A stretch of 31,954 bases of DNA from a virus (taxonomy: Duplodnaviria; Caudoviricetes). The notes beneath the pieces are model-generated. The model saw only the letters and a program-made list of their open reading frames with translations. It made no database searches and was not told the origin of the DNA. Made by a program: the position numbers and the translations under genes. Shown piece after piece: positions 27,300 to 31,914 of the stretch. The DNA is taken from the IMG/VR virus record IMGVR_UViG_3300008116_000655, positions 1 to 31,954 of that record; one strand, written 5' to 3'. Within the stretch, counting starts at the first letter, position 1. The number at the start of each line of letters is the position of its first letter.

Positions 27300-27449
27300 C
27301 TCAACTATGAGTGTGTTAGGGGGTCTTCGGTCGCTAGAAGCTCCCTACGCCCCCCTAGGGGCGTGTAGGTCGTCTAATTACCTTGGTCGGTAATTATCCT
27401 CCTACTATGTATAAGCCGGGATAAGGGGTGTTTATCCCACCCTAAGGGG

Positions 27450-27465: not shown

Positions 27466-27675
27466 GTCTATCCAATGCAGTCAAATATGGCTTTGACCTG
27501 CGGTTTTACTGTCTCGGATCCTATCAAAAATTTTAGAGTGGGTACATATATACACAGGGTGGTGGCATATAAAGCACTCGGGTCATTTTGCCGGGGCGTG
27601 TCGAACCAGCTAGTTTACATAATGCATATTATCGGCGACCAGTTTGGGGGCATTTTGTGGAGACTTGCAGGGCAT

Positions 27676-27993
27676 GGCAGACCCTCAGGAACTAGGCACC
27701 TTTCAAAGTTCCCCAACTAACCAACCGCCTCAGTACTTGGCAGGGGGGGCAGGGGTCAGGGGCAGGGGGCAGAACTGGCAGGGCAGACCTTCAACCTTTG
27801 ACCCATTGGGCAGACCATCGCCACGGATCGCAAAGCATCCACGCCAAGGATCGAGAACCCTCCACGCTTGGCAGACCCCAAGGGGAAGCAGTTCCACGCT
27901 TGGAACCCCTCGAGCTGGACTTCGAGCTACAGGAAAACCCTTCCCGAAATGCTTCCAATCTGACCCCGAAAATGGGAGAATGGAACCCTCGAG
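27676..27993. repeat. Short direct-repeat array in the putative genome-end region
   Basis: GGCAGACC x4 (27676, 27782, 27809, 27870), TCCACGC x3, GAACCC(C)TC x3 and G-tracts at 27743-27769. Confidence 0.55.
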
Positions 27994-28026
27994 GGCATCC
28001 TCGAGACCTAGAGAAAAGGAATCAGA

Positions 28027-28338
28027 ATGAAACTCAAGAACCAAGACCAAGCATCCGAAGCAATCCAAAATCGAGAAGCGTTTCTTGCTTCTGCATTGTG
28101 GGCAATAGATGGAAGAAGCAACACCTACGGAATGCTCAACCCTGAAGAGATTGAACAATATGAAGCAGTTCGAGATTCGATTGACTTCGTGGTCATGTCT
28201 TACAAAACCCCAATCGCTTGGCACTCTTCTGCTGGTTGGTACATGGTCAAACAGAAGTTTTCTGTGACTACTTCACGCCATCAGGGAATCGTTAGAAGGG
28301 CATTGAATAGCAAAGGATTAGTCGAGGTTTCACGATGA
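28027..28338 (+). CDS. First early gene, hypothetical
   Basis: Strong RBS leader; VVMSYKTPIAW...KFSVTTSRHQ motif. Confidence 0.8.
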   Translation: MKLKNQDQASEAIQNREAFLASALWAIDGRSNTYGMLNPEEIEQYEAVRDSIDFVVMSYKTPIAWHSSAGWYMVKQKFSVTTSRHQGIVRRALNSKGLVEVSR

Positions 28339-28706
28339 AAACTTTCACCGCTTTCATTGTCTGCCAATCGTTAGACATTCAAGCCGAAACAATCGAAGAA
28401 GCAGAGGAAAGATATTCAGAGTTCTTCGATGGAGGGGAATCATGTGCAAAGCATGAAGAAGATTGTGACTGCTTCTCCTTCGATGATTCAAATGTCTTTC
28501 ATTACTTCGAAGAAGAAAACGAATCCGCTTCGTGGAAGTTGGTTCACCGATTGGCTTCTCAAATCTTCGAGAAGTTCGGAGAAACTGAATCATTTCTCTA
28601 TCTTGTCGAACAGATAGCAGAAGCAACCGAAGAAGATCCCATGAAAACCCTCTACGAGGTCAAGGCATACACCGACCGACAAACAAGGGAGGACATGGCG
28701 AGTTAG
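28335..28706 (+). CDS. Early hypothetical protein (acidic)
   Basis: ATGA overlap with the previous gene. Confidence 0.75.
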   Translation: MKTFTAFIVCQSLDIQAETIEEAEERYSEFFDGGESCAKHEEDCDCFSFDDSNVFHYFEEENESASWKLVHRLASQIFEKFGETESFLYLVEQIAEATEEDPMKTLYEVKAYTDRQTREDMAS

Positions 28707-28767
28707 TCGAAACCCCTTCGGGGGTCTTCGGTGGGGTGGTTCCCCCCGAACTGATGAGACAAACCAC
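28706..28767 (+). ncRNA. Type II hammerhead ribozyme 1
   Basis: GTC-GAAA-CCCC-TTCG-GGGG-TC^-TTCGG..CCGAA-CTGATGA-GAC; loop TGGTT pairs with the downstream AACCA; predicted cleavage after C28726. Confidence 0.92.
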
Positions 28768-28783
28768 TAGAGAAAGGGTCAGA

Positions 28784-29041
28784 ATGTACGAAGTAAAGAA
28801 AGTCCGACTCTTCGAGAACTCTCGAGGAATGATTGGACACACTCTCCACATCTACAGAGGAGAGAAGGAAATCGGGGAGTCCACCCATGACGGAGATTCC
28901 CTCTGCTACGACATCCGATTTATCTACTCCAGCGAGGAATGCGACTTCCTTGCAGAGTTCGGGGATGCACAAGATGGAGTTGACCAACTCCTCACCGCTT
29001 ACGAAGACCGACTCCTCCACGGATCGAAGAAGGGGGCGTGA
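28784..29041 (+). CDS. Early hypothetical protein (start MYEVKK at 28784)
   Basis: ATG follows the conserved leader; the upstream GTG start falls inside the ribozyme. Confidence 0.75.
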   Translation: MYEVKKVRLFENSRGMIGHTLHIYRGEKEIGESTHDGDSLCYDIRFIYSSEECDFLAEFGDAQDGVDQLLTAYEDRLLHGSKKGA

Positions 29042-29496
29042 GGTTAGAGATGCAAATCGAGCTACAGGAAAAAAGATTCCACGAATCTGTTGCACCTTGC
29101 AAAGATTTCGTGGCACATCCACACATGGTTGATTATGAAGTTCACGATATGAATGGGAACTTCCTACGGATGGAACACGGCGGTTGTTATGTCTGCCGAT
29201 GTTCTTCTGTTGCTGAAAGTGATGGAAGCAATGAACTTGCTCTTGCTCTCGAAGATGCTGGCATCAAATGCCAAGTCGAACAGACTGGTGGGTTCTGCAT
29301 GGTGGTCTATGTCTACTCAGAAGATATGAAGAAGGCATTGACCCTGACCACCGATGCCATTGGGTTCGAACCCGATGTCGAGGAAGGCATAGAGGAATGG
29401 GTTGACCTGACTCCAACTGAGGTTGCAGAAGGAAAGACTGCAATCGAAACGCTAGTCGAAACAACCAAGGCAAACCTTTGGAGGATTGGAAAATGA
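29038..29496 (+). CDS. Early hypothetical protein
   Basis: GTGA overlap; VEQTGGFCMV motif. Confidence 0.7.
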   Translation: MRLEMQIELQEKRFHESVAPCKDFVAHPHMVDYEVHDMNGNFLRMEHGGCYVCRCSSVAESDGSNELALALEDAGIKCQVEQTGGFCMVVYVYSEDMKKALTLTTDAIGFEPDVEEGIEEWVDLTPTEVAEGKTAIETLVETTKANLWRIGK

Positions 29497-29801
29497 AAAC
29501 TGGAATGACTTACATCTGCTCAACTTGTTGGGCAGAAGCATCAACGAATGCTGATTATGAAAAGCACATGGACATCTGCCAACCCGACAGAGTTCGAATG
29601 ACTGACCGCAAGAACATCAAGGTCGGCGACCAATGGTTCGACATGATGTTCTTCTCAGATGGTTCGATTCAAAGAACTTGCATCTCTTATGTGATGAAGG
29701 ATGGGAAGAGAGTGGCGATTCCAGATTGCCAAGCAAGGGTCTCTGATTGGGAAGCGAAGTGGCACTACTGCAAGAACTGCGATTGGAATCAAGCATCGTA
29801 A
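29493..29801 (+). CDS. Early protein with Cys/His zinc-finger-like motifs
   Basis: ATGA overlap; CSTC..H..C and C...CKNC. Confidence 0.7.
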   Translation: MKTGMTYICSTCWAEASTNADYEKHMDICQPDRVRMTDRKNIKVGDQWFDMMFFSDGSIQRTCISYVMKDGKRVAIPDCQARVSDWEAKWHYCKNCDWNQAS

Positions 29802-29865
29802 GTCGAAACCTCCCTTCGGGGAGGTCATGGGGAACTGGTCAACCCCATCTGATGAGACAGACCAC
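29802..29865 (+). ncRNA. Type II hammerhead ribozyme 2
   Basis: GTC-GAAA-CCTCCC-TTCG-GGGAGG-TC^-ATGGGG..CCCCAT-CTGATGA-GAC; loop TGGTC pairs with the downstream GACCA; predicted cleavage after C29826. Confidence 0.92.
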
Positions 29866-29883
29866 TAGAGAAAAGGAACAGAT

Positions 29884-30036
29884 ATGAAACTAACGAAGAG
29901 AGGAAAGCGAGTTCGTGCAGTAGCAATACTTCTCGGGATCATCGCTATCTATTATGTAATGACCCACATTTGGTGGGTTGGAGACCACTACTGCTGGGGC
30001 AGTATGGTCGAGTGCTACTTCGAGGAGGGAAAGTAA
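29884..30036 (+). CDS. Small membrane protein (50 aa, not in the ORF track)
   Basis: MKLTKRGKRVRAVAILLGIIAIYYVMTHIWWVGDHYCWGSMVECYFEEGK; strong RBS; TAATG coupling. Confidence 0.75.
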   Translation: MKLTKRGKRVRAVAILLGIIAIYYVMTHIWWVGDHYCWGSMVECYFEEGK

Positions 30037-30308
30037 TGAACAAAGCTGAAACTTTCCTCGATATGAACTACAAAGAATGGGAAGCAAAGTACAAACCAAT
30101 CGCCAGCGAAGATGGCTCTTGGTTCCATGACGATGCTGAGAAGTTGAAGACCTTCGATCCTAAACAGATTTGGACTTGGGTCTCTGAGGGAGATAGCGAT
30201 TGGATTTACAACGGATATCGCTGGATAAACAGACTCTCTTACCTAGTGACTGAAGTTGCTTGGCAAGAAGGCGAAGACATCTGTGTCGTAGTAAGGGAGA
30301 CCAAGTAA
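30036..30308 (+). CDS. Early hypothetical protein (start MNKAET)
   Basis: WEAKYKPI...IWTWV...GYRWINRLSYLVTE; coupled start. Confidence 0.75.
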   Translation: MNKAETFLDMNYKEWEAKYKPIASEDGSWFHDDAEKLKTFDPKQIWTWVSEGDSDWIYNGYRWINRLSYLVTEVAWQEGEDICVVVRETK

Positions 30309-30451
30309 TGACTGACCTAAACAATGAAGTGAAGGAACTTCACAAGTTGATTGGCGATTCATATTGTCGCTATGAGTTATCAGAAGATGCTTACAACCAT
30401 TGGTTGAAGTTGGCAGGAATACAGATACAGGAGGTATCAAGTAATGCCTAA
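30308..30451 (+). CDS. Small hypothetical protein (47 aa)
   Basis: TAATG coupling, RBS AAGGGAG. Confidence 0.6.
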   Translation: MTDLNNEVKELHKLIGDSYCRYELSEDAYNHWLKLAGIQIQEVSSNA

Positions 30452-30617
30452 GTTCAAAGTGAAGTATGTGTATGAACGCTGGTATGACCTCGAGCTGGAG
30501 GCTTCGAGTCGAGAGGAAGCACTCGATAAGTTCCATGCCGGTGATTTCGAAATCGAATCAAGGCTTGTCGGCGGCGAACTTCAAGATTCGGTGGTCATTG
30601 AGGAGGTCTTGGCATGA
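30444..30617 (+). CDS. Small hypothetical protein (57 aa, DpnD/PcfM-like pattern)
   Basis: MPKFKVKYVYERWYDLELEASSREEALDKF...; RBS AGGAGG. Confidence 0.65.
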   Translation: MPKFKVKYVYERWYDLELEASSREEALDKFHAGDFEIESRLVGGELQDSVVIEEVLA

Positions 30618-30775
30618 ACATTTATGACGAGAACAACAACTGCATCGAATGCATGGAGTACTTCTACGATCCGCATCAACCTGATTGCAAGTACTCAGAT
30701 GTCTGTGGCATCTGCGATTGCAAATGGGAATCATTCAGCAAGTCACTTGCCATCCATTGGAAGGTGAACAAATGA
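30614..30775 (+). CDS. Small Cys-rich protein (53 aa)
   Basis: MNIYDENNNCIECMEYFYDPHQPDCKYSDVCGICDC...; ATGA overlaps at both ends. Confidence 0.6.
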   Translation: MNIYDENNNCIECMEYFYDPHQPDCKYSDVCGICDCKWESFSKSLAIHWKVNK

Positions 30776-30987
30776 ACCACGGAAAACGACTTGAGAGAAT
30801 AGCCAAAGCCCAAGCCAAGGCTTTGATTGGAACTCTTACCTTGTTAGATGATGAAGGTCTAGGTGATAGCGACCTTTCTGCATTGCGAGGTTCACTTCGA
30901 TCATGGATTGAACACATAACTCCTATCAGGGAAAGTAAATGGGATAGAAAAGTCCACGATGATACAGACTGCGAGGTAGAAGAATGA
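30772..30987 (+). CDS. Early hypothetical protein (start MNHGKR)
   Basis: RBS AAGGTG, ATGA coupling. Confidence 0.65.
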   Translation: MNHGKRLERIAKAQAKALIGTLTLLDDEGLGDSDLSALRGSLRSWIEHITPIRESKWDRKVHDDTDCEVEE

Positions 30988-31301
30988 CTGAAAAGCTACA
31001 GAGAATCATCGTGTCCATCTATTCAAGCGATAACAATCTCCTTCTTGGAGACCTATCTCGCCGACTCGATGGGTTGGAATGGTGGATTACTGACCGCCAA
31101 TCCATCGAACTTGGTGAAAAGTACACATTCAATGCGGTATTCGAAACCAACAGACCGCTAACACAGAAAGAGTTCGATGACATCGAGAACACATTGCGAT
31201 TGCAACTCGATGAACCTTGGGTCGAACAAGGTGATGGACAATGGGATGATGCCGAGTTCGATCTATCGGTGATCACCTGTGAGATGAAGCAGGAGGGTTG
31301 A
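30984..31301 (+). CDS. Early hypothetical protein
   Basis: 105 aa, ATGA coupling. Confidence 0.7.
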   Translation: MTEKLQRIIVSIYSSDNNLLLGDLSRRLDGLEWWITDRQSIELGEKYTFNAVFETNRPLTQKEFDDIENTLRLQLDEPWVEQGDGQWDDAEFDLSVITCEMKQEG

Positions 31302-31429
31302 TGGGGTATGTACTCTTCTTCCTTTCCTTCTTCACCTTCCCACTTGGTATGAGTGAAGACTCACCCATACTGATGACGATTCCCTTCCTTGTATGGACAG
31401 GGGCAATCCTCTTTGGAGGAGAAAGGTAA
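31301..31429 (+). CDS. Small two-TM membrane protein (42 aa)
   Basis: MGYVLFFLSFFTFPLGMSEDSPILMTIPFLVWTGAILFGGER; RBS AGGAGG. Confidence 0.6.
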   Translation: MGYVLFFLSFFTFPLGMSEDSPILMTIPFLVWTGAILFGGER

Positions 31430-31432
31430 ACA

Positions 31433-31843
31433 ATGCACCGACTTATCATCGGTGGTCTCTTGTTGGGGGCGGTACTCATATCGCCCCCACTCAAGACCAT
31501 TGAAACCAAAGCTGAAACAAACCTCGTGGTTCAAGACATTCCAGTCGTGATTCACTACGAGGATATGACCTTCGATCATCTGCCACCGGCATGGCAGAAG
31601 CTGGCTATGTGTGAGAGTAGCGGCAGATCGAACGCAGTAGCAGGAACAAAGAAGCAGTTCCAAGGCTACTTCCAAATCGAATATCCCCGGACTTGGGTTG
31701 CTCACGGCGGCGATAGCGGCACACCACCCAAGAAGGCAACCCTGATGGAGCAGTTCCATGTGGCACTACACATCTATGCTGACCGAGGATCGAAGCCGTG
31801 GCCATACTGTGGCAAGTTCCTGAAGGCGGAATACGGCAAATAG
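31433..31843 (+). CDS. rpf: Resuscitation-promoting-factor-like lytic transglycosylase with signal peptide
   Basis: WQKLAMCESSG (catalytic Glu), GYFQI...TW...GG, A...EQ...A, PWPYCG, matching the Rpf domain. Confidence 0.85.
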   Translation: MHRLIIGGLLLGAVLISPPLKTIETKAETNLVVQDIPVVIHYEDMTFDHLPPAWQKLAMCESSGRSNAVAGTKKQFQGYFQIEYPRTWVAHGGDSGTPPKKATLMEQFHVALHIYADRGSKPWPYCGKFLKAEYGK

Positions 31844-31856
31844 TGGTACGATAAAT

Positions 31857-31914
31857 GTAGTGGATCTGATCCTCCACTCTAGGGAAAGGCCCCCTCTTCG
31901 GAGGGGGTTCTTTC
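31857..31914 (+). ncRNA. Putative antisense small RNA complementary to the three early RBS leaders
   Basis: Extended -10 TGgTACGAT (31844-31852), hairpin AGTGGA-TCTGATCC-TCCACT, then a terminator; reverse complement of 31865-31883 = CCTAGAGTGGAGGATCAGA. Confidence 0.55.

Follow-up and report, generated by a model that had tools for sequence, protein, structure and literature searches.

A candidate antisense small RNA and putative mRNA-cutting elements in the early operon of a probable actinophage

The 31,954-base virus record IMGVR_UViG_3300008116_000655, analysed over its whole length and called the window below, comes from an uncultured freshwater phage and carries its terminase, portal, major head and tail genes on the - strand. 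Small genes in the opposite orientation occupy 28027-31843, the last of them encoding a transglycosylase-like protein. A sequence-only reading had proposed that this early operon is governed by an all-RNA circuit, in which hammerhead ribozymes release mRNA units and a small antisense RNA (sRNA) from the operon end acts on the ribosome-binding site (RBS) leader that the units share. We regard this circuit as a real and well-supported candidate. On comparative sequence evidence it appears probable that the sRNA pairs in trans with the shared leader and blocks translation, and that the hammerheads cut the early mRNA into blocks of hairpin, leader and AUG. The exposed bases of the predicted sRNA fit the leader, and among relatives the two vary in concert; RNA-RNA pairing that turns the early genes down is therefore likely.

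Three early genes are headed by the common leader, and the strings quoted by the sequence-only reading for these leaders, and for a hairpin at the 5' end of the primary transcript, were all found in their places:

27953..27981, + strand: predicted early promoter, with a weak -35 at 27953-27958, a 17-nt spacer and an extended -10 at 27973-27981; start at about 27987
27988..28005, + strand: 5' hairpin of the primary early transcript (string confirmed at the site, folding)
28007..28029, + strand: leader 1 and the AUG of a 103-aa gene, made of a CCTAG box, an A-rich spacer and a GGAATCAGA box
28767..28786, + strand: leader 2 and the AUG of an 85-aa gene (string confirmed at the site)
29865..29886, + strand: leader 3 and the AUG of a 50-aa gene, which starts at 29884 (string confirmed)

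The promoter is called from the sequence of the window and from the corresponding position in 20 genomes, and relatives have a short hairpin where the window has that at 27988-28005. The leaders are A-rich and mostly unpaired in folds. The window has four matches to the pattern CTAGAG-N4-12-[TA]CAGA: the three leaders on the + strand and, on the - strand, a single one that is the complement of the sRNA itself. When the sRNA 5' part was dinucleotide-shuffled 20,000 times, both complementary words arose in order in 67 cases. Of the matches to the strict leader pattern in four whole records, 3/3, 3/3, 3/4 and 3/5 fall in the early region. The gene behind leader 1 belongs to phrog_32689, a family without assigned function, and family searches gave no match for the gene behind leader 2. 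The leader is carried by only three of about 14 early genes, so shut-off of a whole unit would need translational coupling or mRNA decay; most of the other starts overlap the preceding stop. One gene of the relative L031 (~2146-2190) is preceded by three tandem leader copies.

The partner of the leaders is the unit behind the last early gene, which the sequence-only reading had presented as promoter, hairpin and terminator and which is present as described:

31433..31843, + strand: last early gene, transglycosylase-like protein (PF06737, 45.1 bits, cut-off 27), used as the anchor for finding relatives
31844..31852, + strand: predicted sRNA promoter, extended -10 box (sequence)
31859..31878, + strand: sRNA hairpin 1, with a 6-bp stem and an 8-nt loop at 31865-31872 (folds, z -2.9; covariation)
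31879..31883, + strand: single-stranded linker of the sRNA, complementary to the 5' leader box (folds, covariation)
31884..31914, + strand: intrinsic terminator hairpin, with a UUCG loop and with G-U pairs on the + strand

The predicted sRNA measures about 58 nt. The 19-mer for which complementarity to the leaders had been claimed lies at 31865-31883, and the claim stands for the 8-nt loop, which is complementary to the 3' leader box overlapping the Shine-Dalgarno (SD) sequence, and for 5-7 nt at the linker, but not for a continuous match; the stem strand between loop and linker faces the A-rich spacer of the leader and is mismatched. The proposed promoter is seen in the window as an extended -10 only, and the consensus scanner made no call there. 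No Rfam family matched the sRNA.

Relatives were gathered by three protein searches, giving 146 usable loci, many of them identical contigs, which were collapsed to 52 groups. The unit stands behind the transglycosylase stop in 52/52 groups, and a promoter-like box lies 3-8 nt before it in 52/52, with a -35 matching the consensus at no fewer than five of six positions (>=5/6) in 29 and an extended -10 in 23, the window included. The sRNA promoter is nearer to the consensus than the early promoter, and both look like the host sigma-A type. Four scaffolds were distinguished: type A, that of the window, is hairpin-linker-terminator; type B is a hairpin plus a terminator that carries the motif in its loop; in types C and D the terminator hairpin stands alone, and its loop bears the motif. 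The motif is predicted to be single-stranded in every scaffold folded. A palindrome occupies the sRNA promoter spacer in 28/52 groups (e.g. L053 and L087, within the first 25 nt after the transglycosylase stop) and is absent in the window; kept even where the -35 is lost, it is a possible operator or small 3' hairpin and could gate the sRNA.

Covariation of leader and sRNA among relatives, a check that the sequence-only reading had suggested, was found, and in trans. The leader scan was blind to the variable base and gave a site in 44/52 groups. Where the sRNA reads CTGTAGG (leader CCTACAG), the variable leader base is C at 59, G at 2 and another base at 14 of 75 sites; where it reads CTCTAGG (leader CCTAGAG), the base is G at 52, C at 6 and another at 10 of 68 sites. 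Counted by group, the majority matches in 18/20 and 19/22 cases, respectively, the sole opposite group (L008) being a truncated contig with one coding hit. The sRNA state changes seven times on the tree of the anchor protein. L087 and L084 have the same sRNA scaffold and first genes that are 59% and 68% identical, and carry opposite alleles in both parts; between L049 and L060, with genes 38% and 61% identical, the leader is switched along with the sRNA.

The other pairing positions follow suit. At the loop site, 385/424 positions are Watson-Crick (53 sites, 16 genomes), and leader position 7, compared by eye, is G in 11/12 sites of genomes with a TCTG loop and A in 35/38 of those with a CTTG loop. 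L049 has a unique sRNA loop that fits 3/3 of its leaders, a 2-nt sRNA deletion in L058 is answered by CCTAGTG leaders, and L114/L121 have lost both the linker and the CCTAG (5') leader box. Beyond the C/G swap, four further sRNA variants are matched by leaders; about six seed variants were seen. In type B it is the region around the start codon of gene 1 that the first loop matches, and L033/L031 differ from L040 there by a compensatory change. When 13 sRNAs were swapped against 41 leaders, the energies fell in blocks, with means of -11.7 kcal/mol for cognate and -7.9 kcal/mol for non-cognate pairs. A pattern scan of metagenomes placed 26/44 matches behind the anchor gene, and 7/7 new loci with at least 3 kb upstream have matching leaders, which is not a blind test; the 18/44 matches without a transglycosylase gene upstream were set aside as chance.

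The expectation that the three leaders would rank at the top among targets of the sRNA did not hold in a raw duplex scan of the whole window that left accessibility out of account, where they came 13th, 20th and 26th. Among start regions, leaders 1, 2 and 3 ranked 2, 1 and 11 of 45 with ungapped helices, and 1, 8 and 2 of 60 with mismatches allowed. A further CCTAGAG, upstream of the phage sigma-factor gene, came 4th of 60 but was discarded as a target, since it occurs in only 3/36 distinct upstream sequences and lies inside a conserved reading frame.

The sequence-only reading had fused the second and third leaders to complete hammerheads, and both are indeed matched by Rfam at full length and above its threshold:

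28705..28768, + strand: type II hammerhead 1 (Rfam Hammerhead_II RF02276, 40.2 bits), predicted cut 28726/28727
29801..29866, + strand: type II hammerhead 2 (RF02276, 46.0 bits), predicted cut 29826/29827

The threshold of RF02276 is 37 bits, and the two matches cover model positions 1-66 of 66. Sequence and cmscan alignment give for both a complete core, loop-closed stems I and III and an open stem II of 3 bp. A pseudoknot between loop I and the 3' tail was seen by eye in both, with 6 and 5 complementary bases; in L023, both sides of it are altered. The predicted cuts, after 28726 and 29826, lie 57 nt 5' of each AUG. In the predicted cleaved product, the core of hammerhead 1 (28751-28755) can pair in cis with the box of leader 2 (28779-28783). 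The RNA data are assembled contigs, from which strand and transcript ends are not readable. In three RNA studies the contigs start at 27999-28000, a short way into the predicted 5' hairpin, and have no loose end, a weak hint. One RNA contig ends at 28720, and in four RNA studies the pieces that follow start at 28747-28757; position 28726 is bridged by one probable-DNA contig and not by RNA contigs of the four studies, again a weak hint only, as strong hairpins alone can break assemblies.

The census of processing elements was limited to the 43 groups with at least 2.5 kb upstream. Hammerheads are present in only 8/43, and the 35/43 without one still keep the sRNA. When genomes without hammerheads were folded, nearly all internal leaders were preceded by a long GC-rich stem followed by a short hairpin. 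In hairpin family 3 (alignment of 21 of 23 sequences, two near-duplicates being left out), 96.1% of the cells are paired and 10/27 pairs are changed on both sides, the paired share in slid controls being 44-52%; in family 2, 11/22 pairs are changed on both sides. These long hairpins show a trait of RNase III signals, an RNA stem of about two turns with compensatory changes, and the 3' strand of the lower stem can refold as the short hairpin; once the stem is cut, the downstream piece would carry this hairpin as its cap. Scans of four loci gave no Rfam family for them, and the idea that they are known ribozymes was dropped at that sensitivity. Since the hairpin families are alike in shape and not in sequence, and have no Rfam match, a structure-specific nuclease fits better than a new ribozyme, and by analogy they are likely RNase III sites. 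Homologues of the 50-aa gene at 29884 have a hammerhead upstream in L023 and L050 and a long hairpin in L051 and L027; the two may be interchangeable devices. The circuit can accordingly be called all-RNA in the 8/43 hammerhead groups, while the others would likely need a host nuclease; the proposed processing into units is supported in that an element of processing type precedes the internal leaders, but it may be a hammerhead or a long hairpin, not a hammerhead alone.

Among cultured phages, the best terminase matches are LanE43-AprF5 and LanE43-AprE7 (F5 and E7 below; both 53% identity), which are reported as phages of 'Ca. Planktophila' (PMC10202952), and we therefore infer that the host of the window phage is actinobacterial, probably of the Nanopelagicales. 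In F5 and E7 a leader is common to early genes, and the F5 leaders have upstream hairpins. No hammerhead pattern was found in either phage, E7 being otherwise checked for the leader word only. In both, a complement of the leader lies shortly before the RBS of the replication operon, within that operon's 5' leader (F5: L153 32660-32715, - strand; E7: L154 31655-31705); this complement could act in cis or on the early leaders.

We propose that self-cleavage at 28726 and 29826 would yield hairpin-capped units with a 5'-OH and 57-nt leaders, and that the long stem of many relatives would be cut by a double-strand RNase of the host, by analogy RNase III, whereupon the freed strand would refold as a short 5' hairpin. 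Downstream of the last early gene, the sRNA would be transcribed from a promoter of its own. In type A, its loop would bind the box that overlaps the SD and its linker the 5' leader box, both within the ribosome footprint; in type B the pairing would cover the AUG of gene 1, and in types C and D a stretch immediately 5' of the SD. Initiation would thereby be blocked. The direct effect would be confined to the gene that heads each block, coupling or decay carrying it onward. Accumulating during infection, the sRNA would lower early protein synthesis once a threshold is passed and would also silence incoming relatives that have the same leader. As both promoters look like the host sigma-A type, the sRNA would probably fire early, and a build-up timer that works by dose appears likelier than a switch triggered late. 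The superinfection immunity that the sequence-only reading had entertained is unlikely in lysogenic form, as 0/5 near-complete relatives have a tyrosine or serine integrase domain (PF00589, PF00239); exclusion during infection is possible. We consider evenly balanced the wider proposition that, in an apparently lytic family of freshwater actinophages, the early genes form an RNA-addressed regulon with interchangeable trimming devices, whose leader barcode is read by a co-evolving sRNA that shuts the blocks off and sorts the phages into specificity groups.

Several results weigh against repression by this sRNA or weaken its support. The proteins behind the leaders match, across searches, only families without known function. 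The strict leader pattern missed variant early leaders in a fifth whole record (G004), and F5 is without a matching sRNA at its early-operon end. RNA contigs say nothing on the sRNA, none spanning it fully, and are uninformative either way. Independent pairs on well-supported branches are concordant in 3/3 cases, too few for significance (p 0.25), and module exchange could have spread a few original changes. The swap matrix was equalled in 0/100,000 permutations, but this figure ignores relatedness and comes from 13 genomes hand-picked from the 52 groups and a home-made energy model. The ranks of the leaders as targets vary with the duplex model, the predicted binding is modest, and the loop site is bulged or mismatched in two of the window leaders. 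A wobble test did not favour the + strand, with 5 wobble-type versus 17 opposite changes, 13 of the 17 at the loop-edge base.

Among other explanations, the one to which we give most room is compatible with the proposed repression: the mechanism would be the same, and its main job would be to exclude superinfecting relatives, or to serve a carrier state, instead of timing the phage's own early genes. The distinct specificity groups of the swap matrix recall the c4 variants described as separating P1 from P7 (PMC5320573), and the sRNA state has changed seven times; yet the near-complete relatives are without PF00589 or PF00239 (0/5), and about six seed variants are few for a diversifying immunity system, which leaves this somewhat unlikely. 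That the pairing is real and has a positive or processing-related role, the sRNA stabilising units, aiding ribosome loading or freeing the hammerhead core from a weak cis pairing with the leader, is decidedly less likely. Covariation indicates pairing and not its sign, in unit 2 as predicted after cleavage the hammerhead core and the leader box can pair in cis, and the single-site types have a 7-nt seed 5' of the SD, not on it; against this, the type A loop covers the SD-containing box and the type B loop the AUG, the open, A-rich leaders leave little to unfold, and the 35/43 groups that lack a hammerhead keep the sRNA all the same.

The motif might instead be a protein-binding site, as a DNA operator or in RNA, the terminal copy being an inverted operator or a decoy on the converging - strand transcript. 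In L014, a near-identical contig (99.8%) that extends beyond the window, a - strand replication operon (sigma factor, primase, helicase, WhiB-like regulator and glycosyltransferase) does converge on the sRNA terminator, the wobble test did not separate the strands, and an altered protein specificity would also give matched changes. We nevertheless find a protein site improbable: the promoter-like box is on the + strand in 52/52 groups, U-tract, UUCG loop and G-U pairs are all on that strand, and in four different scaffolds only the predicted single-stranded parts match, while the stem bases between them do not. Action in cis, the 3' end of the early mRNA folding back on the leaders, appears marginally less probable still. 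The early mRNA would end in the unit, as the stretch from the last early gene to the unit gave no terminator call; but the unit has its own promoter-like box, and after processing leaders 1 and 2 would sit on other molecules, yet they co-vary equally tightly. Chance, an anti-SD-like string beside a terminator inherited with the early region, is scarcely credible. The matches are short and raw duplex energies do not single out the leaders, but the covariation, with several separate matched changes in leader and sRNA, largely refutes it, and the sigma-gene look-alike failed the same test (3/36 upstream sequences, conserved reading frame).

Some further features of the region were noted. The non-coding gap between terminase and early promoter (27672-27914) holds several short direct repeats and G-rich runs, a possible origin or packaging region. 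A hairpin-rich stretch with two inverted repeats lies upstream of the terminase gene (27318-27385). At 31118-31119, L014-L016, which are near-identical, have a 53-nt insertion in the region of the 30984-31301 gene that is absent from the window.

The proposed circuit can be set beside several known systems. In T7, long stems between early genes are reportedly processed by RNase III, releasing unit mRNAs from the early transcript; these stems resemble the long hairpins of the relatives without hammerheads, in which cleavage is predicted. We know of no shared-leader antisense RNA in T7.

The c4 antisense RNA of phages P1 and P7, beside which the CI RNA of P4 is named as similar, is a second point of reference. 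As described in the cited accounts, c4 (Rfam RF01695; PMC2864571) is a small structured phage RNA in which two single-stranded regions pair with a two-part target over the RBS, and a few base changes in its variants define specificity groups (PMC5320573). The window sRNA likewise is predicted to expose two single-stranded stretches that complement, and co-vary with, a bipartite target containing the RBS, a likeness and not a membership; with E up to 1 allowed, the c4 model matched neither the window nor four relatives' loci. Whereas c4 is described with three stem-loops in about 77 nt and is cut by RNase P, the sRNA is predicted to have two hairpins (one in types C/D) in about 58 nt and has its own promoter-like box; unlike c4, it would target three separate early leaders. 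The place of c4 is the lysogeny immunity region of a temperate phage, in contrast to the relatives without integrase here, and no repressor cassette was matched among the 36 scanned proteins of the window. By these predictions the sRNA works like c4 but is not a c4 member. Its natural alleles (the C/G seed and several loop variants) are ready compensatory pairs, usable without phage culture. If the circuit is true, a multi-target trans-acting sRNA would take part in the early control of an apparently lytic phage whose freshwater bacterial hosts are probably abundant.

Clusters of type II hammerheads in phages and prophages have been proposed to cut long transcripts into operon- or gene-length mRNAs, with processing seen in vitro (Perreault et al. 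2011, PMC3088659). The elements described here share with them the type II fold, the pseudoknot between loop I and the tail and the presence of several copies flanking genes or short blocks; they differ from that account in that the ribozyme is fused to a standard leader with a matching separate sRNA, and that relatives swap in a long hairpin. The purpose of the clusters is left open in the cited part of the 2011 paper, and the natural exchange of ribozyme and long hairpin before the same gene family gives comparative support to a role in mRNA cutting. We found no publication on the combination of hammerhead, leader and sRNA in a search with subscription journals and supplements outside its scope, and the alignments of the 2011 paper may list these hammerheads. 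If confirmed, the arrangement would link an orthogonal antisense switch to a naturally occurring ribozyme insulator.

The leaders themselves recall the Start Associated Sequences (SAS) of Cluster K mycobacteriophages and Cluster EF Microbacterium phages, over-conserved asymmetric RBS motifs (PMC3203893, PMC7302621, PMC11373665) that are reported upstream of non-structural genes where the preceding gap is larger. Four K1 phages each have one copy in reverse, and the function of SAS is stated there to be unknown, possibly as an RNA or protein site. Like SAS, the leaders are conserved asymmetric RBS motifs in one orientation, before non-structural genes and in an intergenic gap; they differ from both published motifs (13-bp consensus) and number 3-4 copies against 10-19. 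The reverse copy here co-varies with the motif, while a test in Cluster K found no covariation, the SAS itself being unchanged in the four right arms checked, and extension of the circuit to Cluster K is not supported: the loop with the reverse SAS is a full complement in 2/6 phages, partial in 2/6 and absent in 2/6. AnnaSerena has nine SAS and no reverse copy in 20000-56707. Anaya has a promoter-like box and structured non-coding region that is conserved in Cluster K phages (JF704106 ~59750-59905; L200 15749-15905; z -6.1; matches in 184 Mycobacterium phage records). The reverse SAS that Pope 2011 noted in Anaya and LilPharaoh forms the loop of its third hairpin; this loop differs in 4/6 phages, and the region is a candidate unannotated RNA. 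Over-conserved RBS motifs in actinophages are still given as of unknown function (PMC11373665), and here such a motif has a co-evolving RNA partner; if the proposed pairing is true, it would provide a working model for over-conserved start-associated motifs in phages.

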